Shown here one piece after another: positions 4,607 to 61,116 of a stretch of DNA of 64,000 bases (positions are counted from its first letter, which is position 1; every line of letters starts with the position of its first letter). The stretch spans positions 1,309,287 through 1,373,286 of the forward strand of contig OZ241910.1 in assembly GCA_965203755.1 (NCBI GenBank). Direction: 5' to 3'. The stretch comes from Phototrophicaceae bacterium. Lineage in GTDB: Bacteria; Chloroflexota; Anaerolineae; Aggregatilineales; Phototrophicaceae. The position numbers and the translations under genes are program-made. The notes beneath the pieces are model-generated. The model did not search any database. It saw nothing but the letters and a program-made list of their open reading frames with translations, and was not told where the DNA came from.

Positions 4607-5320
4607 ATGCGCTTGACCCAAACCTTCATCCTGCTCGTCTTGTTCCCCATCAGCCTTGTAATGACTGCCCAAGGCGAATCGGACACCATCGCGCTCCCGA
4701 CCGATGATGACGTCCATCTTGCCGGCGACTTCTATCCGCCGCTTGAGCAGCCGGCGCCGCTCATCATCGCCCTGCACATGCTCAACAGCAGCCGCGCCGC
4801 CTACGACGCCGTCATCCCCGATTTGCGGGCCGGCGGCTATGCGCTTCTCAATGTCGATATGCGCGGTCACGGGGCTTCTGGCGGGGTTCGGGATTGGGAT
4901 TTGGCGGTTGACGATCTGCGGCTGTGGATCGACTGGCTGGCGGCGAATGGACATATCAGCGCGCGCGGTCTGGTCATCATGGGCGCCAGCATCGGCGCCA
5001 ATGTCGCCTTGATTGGCTGTGCCGAAAGCGACGTCTGCCGCGGCGCCATCGCGCTTTCGCCGGGGCTGGATTACCGCGGCCTCCAGCCTGAAGCGGCCCT
5101 GGTGGCCGGCCTGGCGGAACGTTCGGCGCTGCTGGTCGCCGCCCATGACGACGCTTACAGCGCCCAAACCATTCGGCAGATGTTTATGAATGCCCAAGGC
5201 GATGTCACCGCCCGCCTGTACCGCGGCCGCGCCCATGGCACGCGCCTCTTTGATTCGGATTATGACAGCCTTAGCCGCTTGATTTTGTCGTGGCTGGCAG
5301 AGCGGTTTAGGGACGAATAG
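4607..5320 (+). CDS. secreted alpha/beta hydrolase
   Basis: Signal-peptide-like N-terminus after AAGGAG-N10-ATG. Contains DMRGHGASGG and a GxSxG nucleophile elbow (GASIG). Confidence 0.7.
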   Translation: MRLTQTFILLVLFPISLVMTAQGESDTIALPTDDDVHLAGDFYPPLEQPAPLIIALHMLNSSRAAYDAVIPDLRAGGYALLNVDMRGHGASGGVRDWDLAVDDLRLWIDWLAANGHISARGLVIMGASIGANVALIGCAESDVCRGAIALSPGLDYRGLQPEAALVAGLAERSALLVAAHDDAYSAQTIRQMFMNAQGDVTARLYRGRAHGTRLFDSDYDSLSRLILSWLAERFRDE

Positions 5321-47162: not shown

Positions 47163-47240
47163 ATATATCGCATAGCATAAACAATGGGCATCCCTTTGAC
47201 AAGCCCTTTTTTGGCAAACTTGGCAAAGTGGCGAAGTTTG

Positions 47241-47390: not shown

Positions 47391-48776
47391 ATGACGGAAC
47401 ATAAAGAAGCAGGACGCACAAGGAATCCAATCAGCCGCCGTGAATTATTGAAGATGCTTGGCGGCGGCGCGGCCGGCATAAGCCTGACAAAGCTGGCTGG
47501 CATTGGCGGGGCGGCCTCGGTTTTGCTGCGGGGGATGCCGGCCGCCGCCCAAAGCCGCGTCGAAATCTGGACCGGCTTCGGGCAAGGACGCATGGCTGAT
47601 GCGATGACCGGGGCTATCGAGCAATTCGCGGCGGCGAATTCCGACTATGTCCCTGAGCATATCATTGTGCCATGGGGCGAGATTCACGACCGCGTGATCG
47701 CCGCCACCGCCGCCGGTTCACCGCCGGACGCATATCGCGGCTGGGCTTGGATCGTCGGCGACGCCGCCATCGGCGCGCTGACCAACTTACAGCCCTATGT
47801 CGACGCCGAGAATGTTGACCTGATGGACTTCTGGCCGGCGACGCTCAATCAAATGAAATACCAAGGCGATGTGCACGCCATGAGCATCTCGACCATCGTG
47901 CAGTTTTTGTTCTACAACAAAGACCGCATGAGAGAGGCCGGCTTGGATCCGGACAGCCCGCCGACGACCATCGCCGATCTGGATGAGCAGGGCGCGGCGC
48001 TCAATGATATCGGCGACGATGGCGAAATCCTGCGCCTGGGCTTTTCGCCGACATTGCCGAGCAAGCAAATCTGGGAGTGGGGCGCTGCACACGGCAGTCA
48101 ATACTGGGACGAGGCCGAGGGCAATATCGCCGTCGACGAAGAAGCGATGATCGCGCTGCTGAACTGGTACAAGGATTACGCCGACAAATTTGGCGTCGAA
48201 AACCTGGCAGCCTATGCCAACACCTACGGCGGCAACGGCTTTGGGCGCAACACGCCGCAAGGCATCTACTATACCGGCTTGATCAGCTTCTGGGTTATTG
48301 GCAGCTGGCTGTTCAACGACATGGGCGAATACGGACCGGATGTCGATTTCGACGTCGTGCCGATCCCGACGCTGGCAAGCGCCGACGATGCCACGCCGGG
48401 CACATCAATCGCCAATATGTACTTCGTGCCGGCCAATTGCGCCAACCCCGACGGCGGCTTCGCCTTCGCCAACTTTATGAGCGAATCGCCCTGGGTGGCT
48501 GTCAACAAGGCGCTGGTGGACAGCGTGATGCCATCGCGCAAGAGCCTGGCGAGCTTGCCGGAGGTGGAAGAGCGCGAAGGCGGCTGGACAATCCTGGCGC
48601 GCGACGAGATTCTGCCCAATACGTTGGAAAGACCGAGCTTCCCCGGCAACGGCTTCTTGGGCGAGGCGTTGAACGACGCCGTTGATGAAGTGATGTTCAA
48701 CAATGCTGACCCAGCGACCGTGCTGGCGGATGCGATTGAGCGCTCACGCCGCGAGGTTGAGCGCCTGCGGGGCTAA
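47391..48776 (+). CDS. sugar ABC transporter substrate-binding protein with Tat signal
   Basis: SRRELLKMLGGGAAGISL is a twin-arginine signal. Overall SBP_bac_1-like. Confidence 0.85.
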   Translation: MTEHKEAGRTRNPISRRELLKMLGGGAAGISLTKLAGIGGAASVLLRGMPAAAQSRVEIWTGFGQGRMADAMTGAIEQFAAANSDYVPEHIIVPWGEIHDRVIAATAAGSPPDAYRGWAWIVGDAAIGALTNLQPYVDAENVDLMDFWPATLNQMKYQGDVHAMSISTIVQFLFYNKDRMREAGLDPDSPPTTIADLDEQGAALNDIGDDGEILRLGFSPTLPSKQIWEWGAAHGSQYWDEAEGNIAVDEEAMIALLNWYKDYADKFGVENLAAYANTYGGNGFGRNTPQGIYYTGLISFWVIGSWLFNDMGEYGPDVDFDVVPIPTLASADDATPGTSIANMYFVPANCANPDGGFAFANFMSESPWVAVNKALVDSVMPSRKSLASLPEVEEREGGWTILARDEILPNTLERPSFPGNGFLGEALNDAVDEVMFNNADPATVLADAIERSRREVERLRG

Positions 48777-56057: not shown

Positions 56058-56234
56058 CAGATATTCTCCTCCATCCTATCACACCGACTGACAAAACCCG
56101 CTGGCAGTGTGGATGCCCATGCGAATTATACCGCAAGCTGGGCGATATCACCTCAGTTGCCGGCTGGATTCGCTTATGCTATATTCCCATTCCCTGATAT
56201 AAGTCCAGCGGAGCGGCATGATTTTGGATCCAGG

Positions 56235-56665
56235 ATGAAACGGGTTATTGTCAAGGATAAACAGCAGGCCGGCATCGTCAGCGGCAAAATCCCCAAAGCC
56301 AAAGAACTCGGCGCGGCGGCGACAAGTCGGTTGATTGCGCTGGCGCGGCGGCGGCGCATCGTCTGTGCATTGATGCCACTCGGCGCAAGGGGCAGGCTGC
56401 TTTTGTGGGTGAATGCAGCGACGACACCGTCTTACGCATTAGCCCCGATATGATTCGCAAAGGTTTGACCTTGATTGGCTCCTGGCATTATAACCTGGCC
56501 GATTCGCTGCGAATGATGGCCATGATTGCCGATATCGGCAATCAACTGGACCAGTTTATCAGCCACCGTTTTTCGATGGATGATATTCAGCAAGCCTGGG
56601 AAACCCAGCTTTCGGGTCAATGCGCCAAAGTGATTTTGAAGCCTTGGGAGGAACGCGATGTATAA
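56235..56665 (+). pseudogene. internally deleted, frameshifted MDR dehydrogenase
   Basis: About 25 N-terminal codons (MKRVIVKDKQQAGIV...) lie in one frame. The C-terminal ~115 aa (VDCAGAAAAHRL...KVILKPWE) lie in another. The catalytic and Rossmann core is missing. Confidence 0.6.
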
Positions 56666-57069
56666 ATCAGCCATTGCTGCCGTGAGCGGTCGCCGCGTCA
56701 GAGACAGATCAGCGCCGATGAGCTTGCCGCTTTTTTCAGGGACGGCTCATTGCGCTGTGAAGCTGCCCGCGCTATGCTTGAGACGATGGCTTAACCTGAC
56801 CGGAGGACGATCATGGGAAGACTAAAGGACAAGAACGTCAGCCTGGCGCCGCGCGTGAACATTAACCTGATTTCCATGGTGCCGACCCGCGAGTAAGCCA
56901 GCGGCGCATGGGCGGCTTTGAATCGGTGAGGCTGCTATGAGCGAACTGGCGATTTTTGTCAAACCGTGGCCAACGTTCCATCTTGCTATGCTCGCCTTAT
57001 CCACTTCGCATGTCATTGAATTGTACCCCTCTCCAGACAGAAACCGCTCCATGATATTGTTGGAACCGC

Positions 57070-57462
57070 TTACGATACGGTTTCCACATCGGCGGGCGCT
57101 TTGCCCATGACCCCTCTGCCTTCCAAAAAGCCCAGCATCCGCGCCTGTTCCTTCTCCACATTTTGCAAGCCTTCACCAAGACTCTTAACCTCGACCTGCA
57201 ACTGATCCAAGCGTCCGTCCATGCGATCCAGGCGCTCCTCAACACGGGCTTGCCGCTGTTCCAGCCGGCCCATGCGCTCATCAAGGCGCGTGATGCGGTC
57301 ATCCATGCGGTCAAAACGGTCGTTCATGCGGTCGCCCATGCGGTCAAAACGGTCGTTAATGCGGTCGCCCATGCGGTTAAACTGGCGAGTCACATAAACC
57401 ATCCCAGCCAAACCCAGACCCAGCGCCGCAACAAAAAACGCGCCAACTTGCAGCCAGTCCAT
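57070..57462 (-). CDS. TM-anchored hendecad/heptad coiled-coil protein, array copy 1 (130 aa)
   Basis: N-terminal TM WLQVGAFFVAALGLGLAGMVYV, then FNRMGDRINDR/FDRMGDRMNDR/FDRMDDRITRL 11-mers followed by heptads. Confidence 0.7.
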   Translation of the reverse strand: MDWLQVGAFFVAALGLGLAGMVYVTRQFNRMGDRINDRFDRMGDRMNDRFDRMDDRITRLDERMGRLEQRQARVEERLDRMDGRLDQLQVEVKSLGEGLQNVEKEQARMLGFLEGRGVMGKAPADVETVS

Positions 57463-57565
57463 CTCTTATCCAGCTTCTCCAATCATGTTCGCGATACTGC
57501 TTCAAGCGCAGCGCGATCCGCGCGCCATGCCAAGTTTCCCGCCCGTTGGCATCTACTGGAACCGC

Positions 57566-57925
57566 TTACGATACGGTTTCCACATCGGCAGGCGCTTTGC
57601 CCATGACCCCTCTGCCTTCCAAAAAGCCCAGCATACGCGCCTGTTCCTTCTCCACATTTTGCAAGCCTTCACCGAGACTCTTAACCTCGACCTGCAACTG
57701 ATCCAAGCGCCCGTCCATGCGATCCAGGCGCTCCTCGACACGGGCTTGCCGCTGTTCCAGCCGGCCCATGCGCTCATCAAGGCGCGTGATGAGGTCATCC
57801 ATGCGGTCAAAACGGTCGTTCATGCGGTCGCCCATGCGGTTAAACTGGCGAGTCACATAAACCATCCCAGCCAAACCCAGACCCAGCGCCGCAACAAAAA
57901 ACGCGCCAACTTGCAGCCAGTCCAT
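57566..57925 (-). CDS. array copy 2 (119 aa)
   Basis: Identical to copy 1 apart from one missing 11-aa module and a few substitutions. Confidence 0.7.
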   Translation of the reverse strand: MDWLQVGAFFVAALGLGLAGMVYVTRQFNRMGDRMNDRFDRMDDLITRLDERMGRLEQRQARVEERLDRMDGRLDQLQVEVKSLGEGLQNVEKEQARMLGFLEGRGVMGKAPADVETVS

Positions 57926-58028
57926 CTCTTATCCAGCTTCTCCAACCATGTTCGCGATACTGCTTCAAGTGCAGCGCGATCCGCGCGCCATGCCAAGTTT
58001 CCCGCCCGTTGGCATCTACTGGAACCGC

Positions 58029-58442
58029 TTACGATACGGTTTCCACATCGGCGGGCGCTTTGCCCATGACCCCTCTGCCTTCCAAAAAGCCCAGCATACG
58101 CGCCTGTTCCTTCTCCACATTTTGCAAGCCTTCACCGAGACTCTTAACCTCGACCTGCAACTGATCCAAGCGTCCATCCATGCGATCCAGACGTTCATCC
58201 ACGCGATCCAGGCGCTCCTCGACACGGGTTTGCCGCTGTTCCAGCCGGCCCATGCGCTCCTCAAGGCGCGTCATACGGACGTCTATGCGCTCCTCAAGGC
58301 GCGTCATGCGGTCATCCATACGGTCAAAACGGTCGTTAATGCGGTCGCCCATGCGGTTAAACTGGCGAGTCACATAAACCATCCCAGCCAAACCCAGACC
58401 CAGCGCCGCAACAAAAAACGCGCCAACTTGCAGCCAGTCCAT
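58029..58442 (-). CDS. array copy 3 (137 aa)
   Basis: Carries an extra IDVRMTRLEER (11 aa) relative to copy 4. It has DRVDERL (7 aa), which copies 1 and 2 lack. Confidence 0.7.
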   Translation of the reverse strand: MDWLQVGAFFVAALGLGLAGMVYVTRQFNRMGDRINDRFDRMDDRMTRLEERIDVRMTRLEERMGRLEQRQTRVEERLDRVDERLDRMDGRLDQLQVEVKSLGEGLQNVEKEQARMLGFLEGRGVMGKAPADVETVS

Positions 58443-58545
58443 CTCTTATCCAGCTTCTCCAATTATGTTCGCGATACTGCTTCAAGTGCAGCGCGGCCCG
58501 CGCGCCATGCCAAGTTTCCCGCCCGTTGGCATCTACTGAAACCGC

Positions 58546-58926
58546 TTACGATACGGTTTCCACATCGGCGGGCGCTTTGCCCATGACCCCTCTGCCTTCC
58601 AAAAAGCCCAGCATACGCGCCTGTTCCTTCTCCACATTTTGCAAGCCTTCACCAAGACTCTTAACCTCAACCTGCAACTGATCCAAGCGTCCGTCCATGC
58701 GATCCAGACGTTCATCCACGCGATCCAGGCGCTCCTCGACACGGGCTTGCCGCTGTTCCAGCCGGCCCATGCGCTCCTCAAGGCGCGTCATGCGGTCATC
58801 CATACGGTCAAAACGGTCGTTAATGCGGTCGCCCATGCGGTTAAACTGGCGAGTCACATAAACCATCCCAGCCAAACCCAGACCCAGCGCCGCAACAAAA
58901 AACGCGCCAACTTGCAGCCAGTCCAT
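58546..58926 (-). CDS. array copy 4 (126 aa)
   Basis: Same termini as the other copies. It lies immediately downstream of the Mo-oxidoreductase gene on the minus strand. Confidence 0.7.
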   Translation of the reverse strand: MDWLQVGAFFVAALGLGLAGMVYVTRQFNRMGDRINDRFDRMDDRMTRLEERMGRLEQRQARVEERLDRVDERLDRMDGRLDQLQVEVKSLGEGLQNVEKEQARMLGFLEGRGVMGKAPADVETVS

Positions 58927-59011
58927 CTTTTATCCAGCTTCTCCAACCATGTTTGCGATACCGCTTCAAGTGCAGCGCGACCCACGCGCCATGCCAAGTT
59001 CCCGCCGCAGA

Positions 59012-60694
59012 TTAAGCCTCGGCATCCGCGGCTTCGAGATCGGCAAACGCGGGCATGGACGCCCTCAAGGAATGCACGCCGGTCGCCCCATCGGGACGGG
59101 TGCCGCGGCTTTCCAGGCTTTGCAGGCTGCCATTGCCATCATAGGCGCGGACGGCAAACTTATGATCGCCTTCGGCAAAGCGCCAGTCATAACGCCAGAT
59201 GACCCAGGTCAGTTCGGACAGAGGCTGACGCAGCTGCGCCGCCTGCCAGTCGCCGTCATCGACGCTGACTTCGACGCCGGCAATCTGCTTGGCGCCGGCG
59301 TAAGCAATGCCGCCAATCGGCACGATGTACTCATCGCCGTCCGCCGCGATGGAATCAACGGCAGCCACATCCACCACAGAGACCGTGTTCACCATCGCTT
59401 CCACGCTCCAGCCACGGCGCACCCAATAGCCTTCTTGCCAGGCATCGACAAATTCGATGCTCTCAATCCACTTGGGCTGCTTCATGCCATAGCGGTCTGG
59501 AATGTAAATCCGCAGCGGGAAACCGTGTTTCTGCTTGAGCGGCTGATCATCCCACTCATAGGCGAACATAATGCGCTCATCGGCCGCAATCACATCCATC
59601 ATGACATACTCGTCGAAGTTGTCAGCGCCGGTGATTTTGAGGGCAACAGCGTCGGCCTGGGGCTGAACCAGGTCCAGGAAATCACTCATGCGGAAACCGG
59701 ACCACTTGGTGGTGCTGATAAGCGAGCCGCCGATGCGGTTGCTGATGCAGGACAGGGTAACGAAGCGGTCCACCCGCTCAAATTGGTCGTAGAGGTCTTG
59801 CAGCGACAGGCTCACCGGATTATCCACCAAACCGGTGACATCAAGCCGCCATTCGCTGGAGTTAATCACCGGCGGGCGCGAGCTAATATCAATGCGGTAA
59901 TGGTCATCGAGCGGGGTGTATTCGGGCCGGGTTCCCGGCGCCGGCTGCAAGTTATCGTCCATATTGGGCAAATCATCGGCAGCAGCCGCTTCAGGCGCAC
60001 CGGCGGCGGCTGGCTGGCTTTCCTCTGGACGATTGCCAAGCAAAGCGCCCAGACCGGCGCCAGCCACGGTCAGAGTGGCGCTTGCCCCGCCAACGCGCAC
60101 CATAAACTGACGGCGGTTGAGCGCGGTCACGGTCATGGCTTTATCGGTTTTCTCATCGACTTGGGTCTGCGCTTCGCTGTGCGCCAGCTGGCCGTAGATC
60201 CAATTTGCCGCTGCGCCCCAGCCGATGAAGACCAGCAAGACCCAGGCCGACTGCACGGCAAAAGGCGCGGTCGCTGTCACATTGACTTGGCTCGAAATCA
60301 GCAGCATGAATACGCCGAAGCCCAATCCCAGCGCGATGCCGGGATACAGATTGCCGGCGCGGGCCCGACGGCGGTTCAACAGCCCATAAAAGAGCGCGGT
60401 CGCGACCAAGCCCAAAACCAGGAAGCCCCCCAGCCCCATCAGCTGCTCGGCGGTTTTGGCGGCGGTGGAGGTTTCGCCCAGGTCAAAGGCAATAATAATG
60501 TCCACCATGATATCGATGCCGAAGGTCAAGAGCGCCCCGGGCAGATTCCGCGATACAAAGTCAAAGACATCAAAGGGGATAAACGGCAGACCCGCGATTT
60601 GGTCAGCTGCGAACAAGAGCGCCATCAGCGCCGGGGTGAGCAAAGCGCCGACGGCGGCGCCCAGCCACATAGAGGGTTTTTTGATATTTTCCAT
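59012..60694 (-). CDS. molybdopterin-dependent oxidoreductase (sulfite-oxidase/MsrP-like fold) fused to N-terminal polytopic membrane domain
   Basis: C-terminal part FVTLSCISNRIGG...GFPLRIYIPDRYGMKQPKWI is Oxidored_molyb-like. There is an internal NRRQFMVRVGG twin-arginine-like motif. Confidence 0.75.
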   Translation of the reverse strand: MENIKKPSMWLGAAVGALLTPALMALLFAADQIAGLPFIPFDVFDFVSRNLPGALLTFGIDIMVDIIIAFDLGETSTAAKTAEQLMGLGGFLVLGLVATALFYGLLNRRRARAGNLYPGIALGLGFGVFMLLISSQVNVTATAPFAVQSAWVLLVFIGWGAAANWIYGQLAHSEAQTQVDEKTDKAMTVTALNRRQFMVRVGGASATLTVAGAGLGALLGNRPEESQPAAAGAPEAAAADDLPNMDDNLQPAPGTRPEYTPLDDHYRIDISSRPPVINSSEWRLDVTGLVDNPVSLSLQDLYDQFERVDRFVTLSCISNRIGGSLISTTKWSGFRMSDFLDLVQPQADAVALKITGADNFDEYVMMDVIAADERIMFAYEWDDQPLKQKHGFPLRIYIPDRYGMKQPKWIESIEFVDAWQEGYWVRRGWSVEAMVNTVSVVDVAAVDSIAADGDEYIVPIGGIAYAGAKQIAGVEVSVDDGDWQAAQLRQPLSELTWVIWRYDWRFAEGDHKFAVRAYDGNGSLQSLESRGTRPDGATGVHSLRASMPAFADLEAADAEA

Positions 60695-60804: not shown

Positions 60805-61116
60805 TCAAGGTTTCGAGGTTTGATACGGGCGGTATTCCTGCTTCTTGAGACCTTCAATGGCCGATTCAGCCGTGAAGCGGTCTACATCAGCCGCATTCAT
60901 CAGCCTTTGCAGCGCCTCGTCATATCGTTCGGCGCGGACAAGCTCCCGCAATTCGGCGGTATCCAGTCGCGGGTCCATGAGCGACAACGGCCGGCGCAGA
61001 CGGCCGGCAGAACGGACTTTGCGTTTGTCATCCACCTGCATAAATTGATGCATGCCAACCAGAAAAAAGGCGCTCATCATCAAAAGATTGCAACTGATGA
61101 ATAACAGGATGTCCAT
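60805..61116 (-). CDS. hypothetical small membrane protein
   Basis: 103 aa with an N-terminal TM helix. No family was recognised. Confidence 0.4.
   Translation of the reverse strand: MDILLFISCNLLMMSAFFLVGMHQFMQVDDKRKVRSAGRLRRPLSLMDPRLDTAELRELVRAERYDEALQRLMNAADVDRFTAESAIEGLKKQEYRPYQTSKP

Follow-up and report, generated by a model that had tools for sequence, protein, structure and literature searches.

The four-gene array

The stretch of DNA analysed here, referred to as the window, comprises 64,000 nucleotides of contig OZ241910.1 from a Phototrophicaceae bacterium of the phylum Chloroflexota. Between positions 57070 and 58926 it carries a head-to-tail set of four minus-strand genes encoding proteins of 126, 137, 119 and 130 amino acid residues (aa), and on this point the listing of open reading frames (ORFs) agrees with the preliminary description of the locus. 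In the order of transcription these are copy A (58546-58926, 126 aa), copy B (58029-58442, 137 aa), copy C (57566-57925, 119 aa) and copy D (57070-57462, 130 aa). Copy A, like the others, consists of a predicted membrane helix, a rod and a conserved head, and the earlier picture of a fixed anchor, a coiled-coil rod of variable length and a fixed C-terminal head was borne out.

The identity of both ends, also noted earlier, extends in the protein alignment over the first 34 and the last 55 residues, and the first ~110 nt of the coding sequence are the same in all four copies. The insertions and deletions (indels) among the copies are GDRINDRFDRM (11 aa), a duplication RMTRLEERIDV/IDVRMTRLEER (11 aa) and DRVDERL/ERLDRVD (7 aa). 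The shortest gene, copy C, is without any of these three modules. Copy B has an extra 33-bp duplication at about 58245-58310 (RMTRLEERIDV / RMTRLEERMGR) together with the 21-bp ERLDRVD module, while copy D contains a 33-bp tandem repeat at 57293-57381 (GDRINDRFDRM / GDRMNDRFDRM). The modules had been proposed as the only difference between the copies. This is correct for the lengths, but point substitutions are also present: I35M, R45L, RITRLDER in place of RMTRLEER, and A to T in RQTRVE. With Tandem Repeats Finder, a period of 463 bp was detected over 57324-59006 (3.5 copies, score 2300), together with nested repeats within the genes, namely the 33-bp repeat of copy D and 21-bp repeats at 58163-58214 and 58680-58731. 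With the spacers counted in, the units are 97-99% identical at the DNA level.

Three plus-strand ORFs of 187-212 aa (57485-58069, 57948-58586 and 58639-59202) run antisense through the array. They were rejected as genes, being antisense shadows of the repeats that occur likewise at other loci, and codon statistics favour the minus strand. For 50 genes of the family described below, the head codons show 6821 synonymous and 378 nonsynonymous pairwise differences, and the minus-strand frame is therefore the translated one. The four window copies differ at six nucleotides in their C-terminal part, each time synonymously, and third codon positions account for 48% of the substitutions within the conserved ends. 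The anchor and the head are under strong purifying selection.

A repeated expression cassette

The genes are separated by three spacers of 103 bp, A-B (58443-58545), B-C (57926-58028) and C-D (57463-57565), which are nearly identical, in keeping with what had been described. Spacer A-B, read on the minus strand, is composed of ~28 nt of 3' flank, GGGAAACTTGGCA, 17 nt, TGCACT, a leader and GGAGA, with TTGGCA at 58513-58508 within GGGAAACTTGGCA. The same elements are found in spacer B-C (TTGGCA 57996-57991, TGCACT 57973-57968) and in spacer C-D (TTGGCA 57533-57528, TGCGCT 57510-57505). About 75 nt of this sequence are also located 5' of copy A, at 58927-59003, between the stop codon of the neighbouring molybdenum (Mo) oxidoreductase gene and the first gene of the array. 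There TTGGCA (58997-58992) is followed by 17 nt, TGCACT and then GGAGA. Since the element also precedes the first copy, the repeated unit is a complete expression cassette. As judged from its composition, each unit is self-contained, with a promoter-like element, a leader and a coding sequence.

Comparison across species supplies GGGAAACTTGGCA, 17 nt, TATACT, a ~45-nt leader and GGAGA ahead of the gene at most loci of the family, tandem and dispersed. In the lineage of the window the TATACT hexamer is replaced by TGCACT or TACACT. The promoter-like motif occurs four times in the array, against 0.5 occurrences expected by chance across the whole window. A scan of the spacers for sigma-70 promoter and terminator consensus sequences gave no match, and the element came to light only through the comparison between species; the scan does not admit G or C as the second base of the -10 hexamer, which is what the window lineage has there. 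Searches of the spacers and flanks with Rfam and for tRNA genes were also without a match. Reading GGGAAAC-N16 as an extracytoplasmic function (ECF) sigma promoter was considered and rejected, as no conserved CGTC-like -10 element lies downstream. Elsewhere in the window, at 47214-47225 on the plus strand, a copy of GGAAACTTGGCA with one mismatch adjoins a canonical promoter (TTGACA-N17-TATCAT) that lies 5' of the gene at 47391, beside a tRNA-Gly gene; this match is probably a coincidence.

A narrow family with three landmarks

Among 5.8 billion proteins searched, 169 relatives were found, and those with names are hypothetical proteins from Chloroflexi/Chloroflexota metagenome bins. A profile search of 1.84 billion representative proteins gave only ~15 true clusters, the remainder being coiled-coil noise. 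With one genome per species in GTDB release 232, there are 34 loci, and all belong to Chloroflexota (Anaerolineae, Aggregatilineales, Phototrophicaceae). The family comprises 156 distinct sequences, found only in metagenome-assembled genomes of this same lineage, and no description of it was found in the literature. It appears to be narrow, unnamed and previously undescribed, and confined to one Chloroflexota order that is known almost only from metagenomes. The bin names COS, RHO and APA fit sponge species that were sampled in PMC8163846. Judging from these names only, a link to a sponge host is possible.

An invariant C-terminal motif, EQARMLGFLEGRGVMG, and an invariant N-terminal membrane helix are present throughout the family. 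In an alignment of 36 sequences, three landmarks are invariant or nearly so, and all three are present in the 156 distinct proteins. The N-terminal membrane helix has invariant W3, L16, L18, Y23, T25, R26, N29 and R30; it is followed by a central LEQxQAR motif and by the C-terminal EQARMLG[FY]LEGRG[VI]MG, with variable repeats between the landmarks. When the family is defined by the EQARMLGFLEGRG head, the helix end Y-x-T-R-x-x-N-R and LEQxQAR, all four window proteins carry every one of these features. Three remotely similar proteins, P0168, P0235 and P0272, share a related C-terminus (for example QARMAGLLEGLALTG in P0235) and have an uninformative context. The similarity of the segment GRGVMGKA to a Walker-A motif was considered and rejected. 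Its G and K positions are not constant among relatives (GRGIMGRAP, GRGVMTKAT), and the tip of a helix cannot supply the strand-loop-helix frame.

The length of the rod ranges from 28 to 210 aa across the 156 proteins. Alignments of close relatives contain 873 internal gaps, of which 417 measure 7 aa and 202 measure 11 aa; sums of 7s and 11s make up 90%. Heptads and hendecads are the two indel sizes that preserve the phase of the seam of a coiled coil, and by established coiled-coil principles 7- and 11-residue indels would survive because they keep the hydrophobic seam continuous. These comparisons show a rod built from 21-bp and 33-bp DNA repeats, which gains and loses whole heptads and hendecads. 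Orthologs span 66 to 266 aa without a preferred set of lengths. The members of 66 and 86 aa have almost no rod, and the length of the rod is therefore not critical.

Predicted structure and topology

The AlphaFold2 model, calculated as a monomer with the family alignment, consists of a single helix at residues 3-122 (mean predicted local distance difference test score 82) and a disordered tail at 123-137, after GRG. The hydrophobic periodicity is 3.6-3.67 residues near the membrane, which is hendecad-like, and 3.5 in the distal part, which is heptad. The switch from hendecads to heptads noted earlier is recovered in this way; only 2-3 hendecads are present, next to the membrane, and the remainder of the rod is heptad.

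The N-terminal flank contains any Lys or Arg in only 3 of the 156 proteins (mean K+R 0.03 versus D+E 1.07), while the 15 residues after the membrane helix contain a mean of 3.4 K+R, including the invariant R26 and R30. In addition, some lineages have proteins of 74 aa without a membrane helix or signal peptide in the slot next to the Mo-oxidoreductase gene (for example L038 8001-8225 and L040 8001-8225). These consist of a short coiled coil and the same EQARMLGFLEGRGVMGKAP head. Because these variants keep both the head and the slot, the head would work in the cytoplasm. On the basis of the positive-inside rule and the anchor-less variants, the rod and head are predicted to be cytoplasmic, with the N-terminus outside.

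Turnover of copies among strains

The same four-gene array was found in three further assemblies of close strains, which come from three other samples (L001/L002, L003 and L047). In L003 and L047 the copies have lengths of 126/137/119/130 aa, as in the window. L001/L002 is a 3.15-Mb contig labelled 89x, and its copies are of 126/137/119/119 aa. Copy D of L001 is of 119 aa as compared with 130 aa in the window, a difference of one 33-bp (11-aa) module that was gained or lost between the strains. The closest relative of each copy is the copy at the same position in the other strain (window versus L003: 0, 2, 3 and 8 differences), and the array is therefore older than the split of the strains.

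It is important to consider whether the array could be an assembly artefact, in which a repeat was collapsed or falsely expanded. Such repeats do break short-read assemblies: in L048, a short-read scaffold of a related species, a run of N (a scaffold gap, ~4840-4940) lies inside the array, and the two apparent L048 copies are a lower bound. However, the array is real because three other close-strain assemblies also hold four copies, with the same genes in the same order, and each positional copy carries private single-nucleotide polymorphisms. An artefact is effectively refuted, and its probability is negligible.

Variant sites such as RINDR/RMNDR make up a patchwork across the copies, a pattern suggestive of gene conversion. 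The conserved ends were compared in five arrays of different species: paralogs are 94-100% identical there and orthologs 76-85%. This homogeneity within arrays points to concerted evolution (gene conversion or unequal crossover) or to a fast turnover of copies by birth and death. Paralogs and strains show a similar ratio of indels to substitutions. The ongoing recombination or gene conversion proposed earlier is supported by the 33-bp strain difference, the patchwork and the homogeneous ends. Taken at the level of sequence comparison, these data show that the array evolves as 21-bp and 33-bp units are duplicated in tandem or deleted and as copies exchange sequence, while purifying selection acts on the anchor and the head.

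Genomic context

The upstream neighbour, at 59012-60694 on the minus strand, is a 560-aa Mo-oxidoreductase with a multi-pass N-terminal membrane domain, an RRQF twin-arginine-like motif, and Oxidored_molyb and Mo-co_dimer domains. The layout of this protein is unusual: ~5 N-terminal membrane helices are followed by the internal RRQF motif with a hydrophobic segment near residue 195 and then by the two domains. It scores under every NCBIfam equivalog cut-off (SorA, SoxC, MsrP). Further upstream, at 60805-61116 (minus strand), lies a gene for a predicted small membrane protein of 103 aa with no Pfam match; its counterparts in L004 and L007 are 76-80% identical, and the more distant loci lack it. 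The neighbours of the array in the window include cysS, the Mo-oxidoreductase gene and an alcohol dehydrogenase gene.

The slot directly downstream of the Mo-oxidoreductase gene is occupied by the family at 24 of 37 loci, one per genome. The usual order is Mo-oxidoreductase, family gene(s) and a 540-aa FG-GAP/UnbV_ASPIC protein. The Mo-oxidoreductase and family genes are co-directional with a short gap (85 bp in the window), and the Mo-oxidoreductase orthologs are 70-82% identical. The number of copies at this slot is one in most species, two in L005 and four in L004 and in the lineage of the window. Because the position is common to so many loci, one per genome, the site is, on comparative grounds, ancestral and not a point of insertion. 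Of the insertion or expansion suggested earlier, only the expansion from one to several copies stands, and it happened in situ.

Some genomes have up to five further loci, single or in tandem pairs and triplets (192/137/119 aa in L044), which lie among housekeeping genes for S-adenosylmethionine synthetase, glutamine synthetase, RelA and a release factor. Two contigs contain five or six separate loci per genome: OZ251572.1 (L005, L008, L014, L023, L025, L027) and OZ251576.1 (L007, L011, L016, L026, L033). Most of these loci carry the same promoter-like element and, directly 3' of the stop codon, a conserved TAAGCyGyTyC. Inspection by eye revealed no terminal repeats.

Downstream of the array, the decayed gene fragments reported in the preliminary description are real. 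They lie at 56109-56665 on the plus strand and are the two ends of a second Zn-alcohol-dehydrogenase paralog, which is intact (344 aa) in the related species L048 (5978-7012). At this place L001 (8115-10887) has an extra 2.77 kb that is absent in the window, comprising most of the ADH_N part and five small unannotated ORFs.

Relation to known protein families

Scans with Pfam, NCBIfam, PHROG and PADLOC gave only sub-threshold matches driven by the coiled coil. The best Pfam match is DUF1664 (PF07889), a family of plant membrane-anchored coiled-coil proteins, with 28.2 and 31.2 bits against a gathering cut-off of 34.6. Residues 7-113, covering the membrane helix and the rod, align with profile positions 17-124. 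However, the DUF1664 model lacks the invariant head, and the family has no known function, so that membership would explain nothing. The second-best match, XhlA (PF10779), reaches 22.2 and 28.6 bits against a cut-off of 34.7, and only the coiled coil is aligned. XhlA and BhlA, holin-like or haemolysin peptides of Bacillus prophages, resemble the family in being small, with one membrane helix and a charged coiled coil. However, the membrane helix of XhlA is C-terminal instead of N-terminal, and the family genes have no phage lysis-cassette context.

The likeness to BhlA noted earlier was not supported, as Holin_BhlA is not among the 25 best Pfam matches, the weakest of which has E = 0.009 to 0.028; a PHROG holin match has E = 0.009. 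The suggested likeness to LEA-3, apolipoprotein and YtxH proteins also failed. None of these models is among the best Pfam or NCBIfam matches, and the repeats of 11 residues along most of the protein that are typical of LEA_3 are replaced here by a rod mainly of period 3.5. The PHROG matches include phrog_12015, of unknown function (E = 1e-11), and phage 'hemolysin' PHROGs with E around 1e-4. In PADLOC only coiled-coil-type matches of 11-17 bits were obtained, to the SMC-like JetC, LmuB and ZorA models, which does not place the proteins in a defence system. ATP-synt_B (PF00430) gave no match, and there are no atp genes among the called neighbours. The PDB sequence profile search yielded nothing beyond generic coiled coils (tropomyosin, GCN4 fusions, haemagglutinin HA2 and autotransporter stalks), and a Foldseek search of the single-helix model against the PDB gave no match, as expected for one long helix. 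By these profile and structure searches, no known family accommodates the proteins, and they have no Pfam, NCBIfam, PHROG or PDB relative, in agreement with the preliminary view that no described family is involved.

Proposed function and alternatives

The sequence features are best explained by a coiled-coil stalk that is tethered to the membrane, projects into the cytoplasm and displays a conserved docking motif, a proposal to which we give about an even chance. The array would be a local amplification of one cassette, made of the promoter-like element, the ~45-nt leader and the coding sequence. The product would be a single-pass membrane protein with a short acidic N-terminus outside the cell and a glycine-rich conserved membrane helix (LGLGLAG) ending in the juxtamembrane Y-x-T-R-Q-x-N-R. 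One continuous α-helix would then form the cytoplasmic coiled-coil rod and end in the invariant ~25-aa motif QNVEKEQARMLGFLEGRGVMGKAP, followed by a disordered acidic tail. The anchor would fix the protein in the membrane and probably oligomerise it there. The stalk would be weakly constrained in length and drift by repeat slippage, unequal crossover and gene conversion. The head would do the actual work, most probably as the place where a conserved cytoplasmic partner docks; its conserved patch, M-L-G-F-L with invariant glycines, may bind this partner or drive assembly. The four copies would mainly raise the dosage, and slippage would incidentally make their rods unequal, by 18 residues (about 2.7 nm) at most.

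Several observations weigh against this proposal. In eight arrays with 23 genes there are only two neighbours of equal length, and nearly all copies within an array differ in length. The diversity within arrays could itself be selected, which would contradict a weak constraint on length. The conserved slot after the Mo-oxidoreductase gene may reflect a specific functional tie, which the proposal leaves out of account. The topology is a prediction from the positive-inside rule and the anchor-less variants.

The proteins might instead serve solely the adjacent membrane Mo-oxidoreductase, as accessory subunits, assembly factors or regulators of this enzyme, whose N-terminal membrane domain would be bound by the head or the helix. 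The recurrent gene order with its short co-directional gap would be explained in this way, as would the anchor-less 74-aa variants in the same slot and the unusually conserved membrane helix, which is expected for helix-helix packing. However, every copy has its own promoter-like element, the further loci lie among unrelated housekeeping genes, and the oxidoreductases are similar enough to indicate species so close that the synteny may be simple inheritance. Such a role is considered unlikely. Selection might also maintain different rod lengths, so that the same head is held at several defined distances from the membrane. Array copies are nearly always unequal despite their homogenised ends (126/137/119/130 aa in the window, 119/144/144/154 in L004, 192/137/119 in L044 and 181/159 in L016), and the lengths of copies A to C are constant across the four strains. 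A graded set of this kind is nevertheless quite unlikely, as most genomes have a single copy at the Mo-oxidoreductase locus, orthologs vary without preferred lengths, strain L001 has two equal copies of 119 aa, and the similar indel-to-substitution ratio among paralogs and strains fits neutral slippage. A broader claim is at least as doubtful: a lineage-specific, length-multiplexed tether with a fixed anchor and docking peptide, whose rods are deliberately diversified in heptad and hendecad quanta and whose arrays are graded ruler sets, possibly linked to the Mo-oxidoreductase and possibly host-adapted. If it were true, the ruler set would organise a cytoplasmic or membrane-proximal structure at several defined distances, and adaptation to a host-associated, possibly sponge-associated, way of life could explain why the system is confined to Aggregatilineales.

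The same length variation could be attributed to surface fibrils, with the N-terminus inside and the C-terminus outside, that vary for interaction with a host or to escape recognition by phages or a host. In-frame variation of repeat length in tandem paralogs is typical of bacterial surface proteins, and several related bin names fit the sponge species mentioned above. However, the orientation expected from the charge distribution is the opposite one in 153 of the 156 proteins, variants exist without an anchor or signal peptide, and the exposed tip would be the invariant part, which is the reverse of diversifying selection. We regard fibrils as highly improbable. Still harder to accept is a group of phage-derived holin-like or haemolysin-like peptides of the XhlA/BhlA type, membrane toxins, or stress protectants similar to LEA and YtxH proteins. 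Only the weak XhlA and PHROG matches speak for it, and every match lies under the curated cut-off and covers the coiled coil only. The membrane helix of XhlA is at the opposite end, the viral contig scan found no relatives, and the neighbours are housekeeping genes, not a lysis cassette. There is also no PADLOC match of note, and LEA, apolipoprotein and YtxH are not among the best Pfam matches.

The coiled-coil rods of the 156 proteins, set between two invariant ends, form a natural series in which length changes almost only by 7 and 11 residues. This is a ready data set on the tolerance of heptad-hendecad transitions and of stalk length in a membrane tether. The array is also a clear bacterial case of concerted evolution of tandem paralogs with gain and loss of modules at the strain level. 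Repeat-driven length variation and concerted evolution of tandem paralogs are already known as phenomena, while the protein family and its head motif are new. The practical significance is limited until a function is found, and the invariant 16-residue head is a sharply defined target that could reveal a partner.

Comparison with known coiled-coil stalks

In Braun lipoprotein (Lpp), trimeric autotransporter stalks and streptococcal M proteins, as here, the rod length is made up of whole coiled-coil repeats; the trimeric autotransporter stalks mix heptads with longer periods, and recombination changes the number of repeats (review: PMC5082667). However, those proteins lie outside the cytoplasm and their spacer length is usually conserved within a species, while the present family has a rod of unconserved length that is predicted to lie in the cytoplasm.

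YhcB (DUF1043; LapD, ZapG) of Gammaproteobacteria is a protein of ~130 aa with an N-terminal membrane helix, the N-terminus outside and a cytoplasmic coiled coil, and its disordered C-terminal end mediates interactions. The small size, the N-terminal anchor, the cytoplasmic coiled coil and the disordered C-terminal end are features that the family would share by analogy. However, the Pfam scan gave no DUF1043 match for the family, YhcB belongs to another phylum, and it is a single-copy protein without variation in repeat length or such an invariant C-terminal motif. Subunit b of F-type ATP synthase is comparable in its N-terminal anchor, its long cytoplasmic helix with hendecads and a right-handed coiled coil, and its C-terminal docking. 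It tolerates experimental insertions and deletions of about 7-14 residues. In contrast, the present family is multi-copy and far more variable in length. By analogy only, its architecture is closest to the YhcB-type N-anchored coiled coils and to the ATP synthase b stalk.

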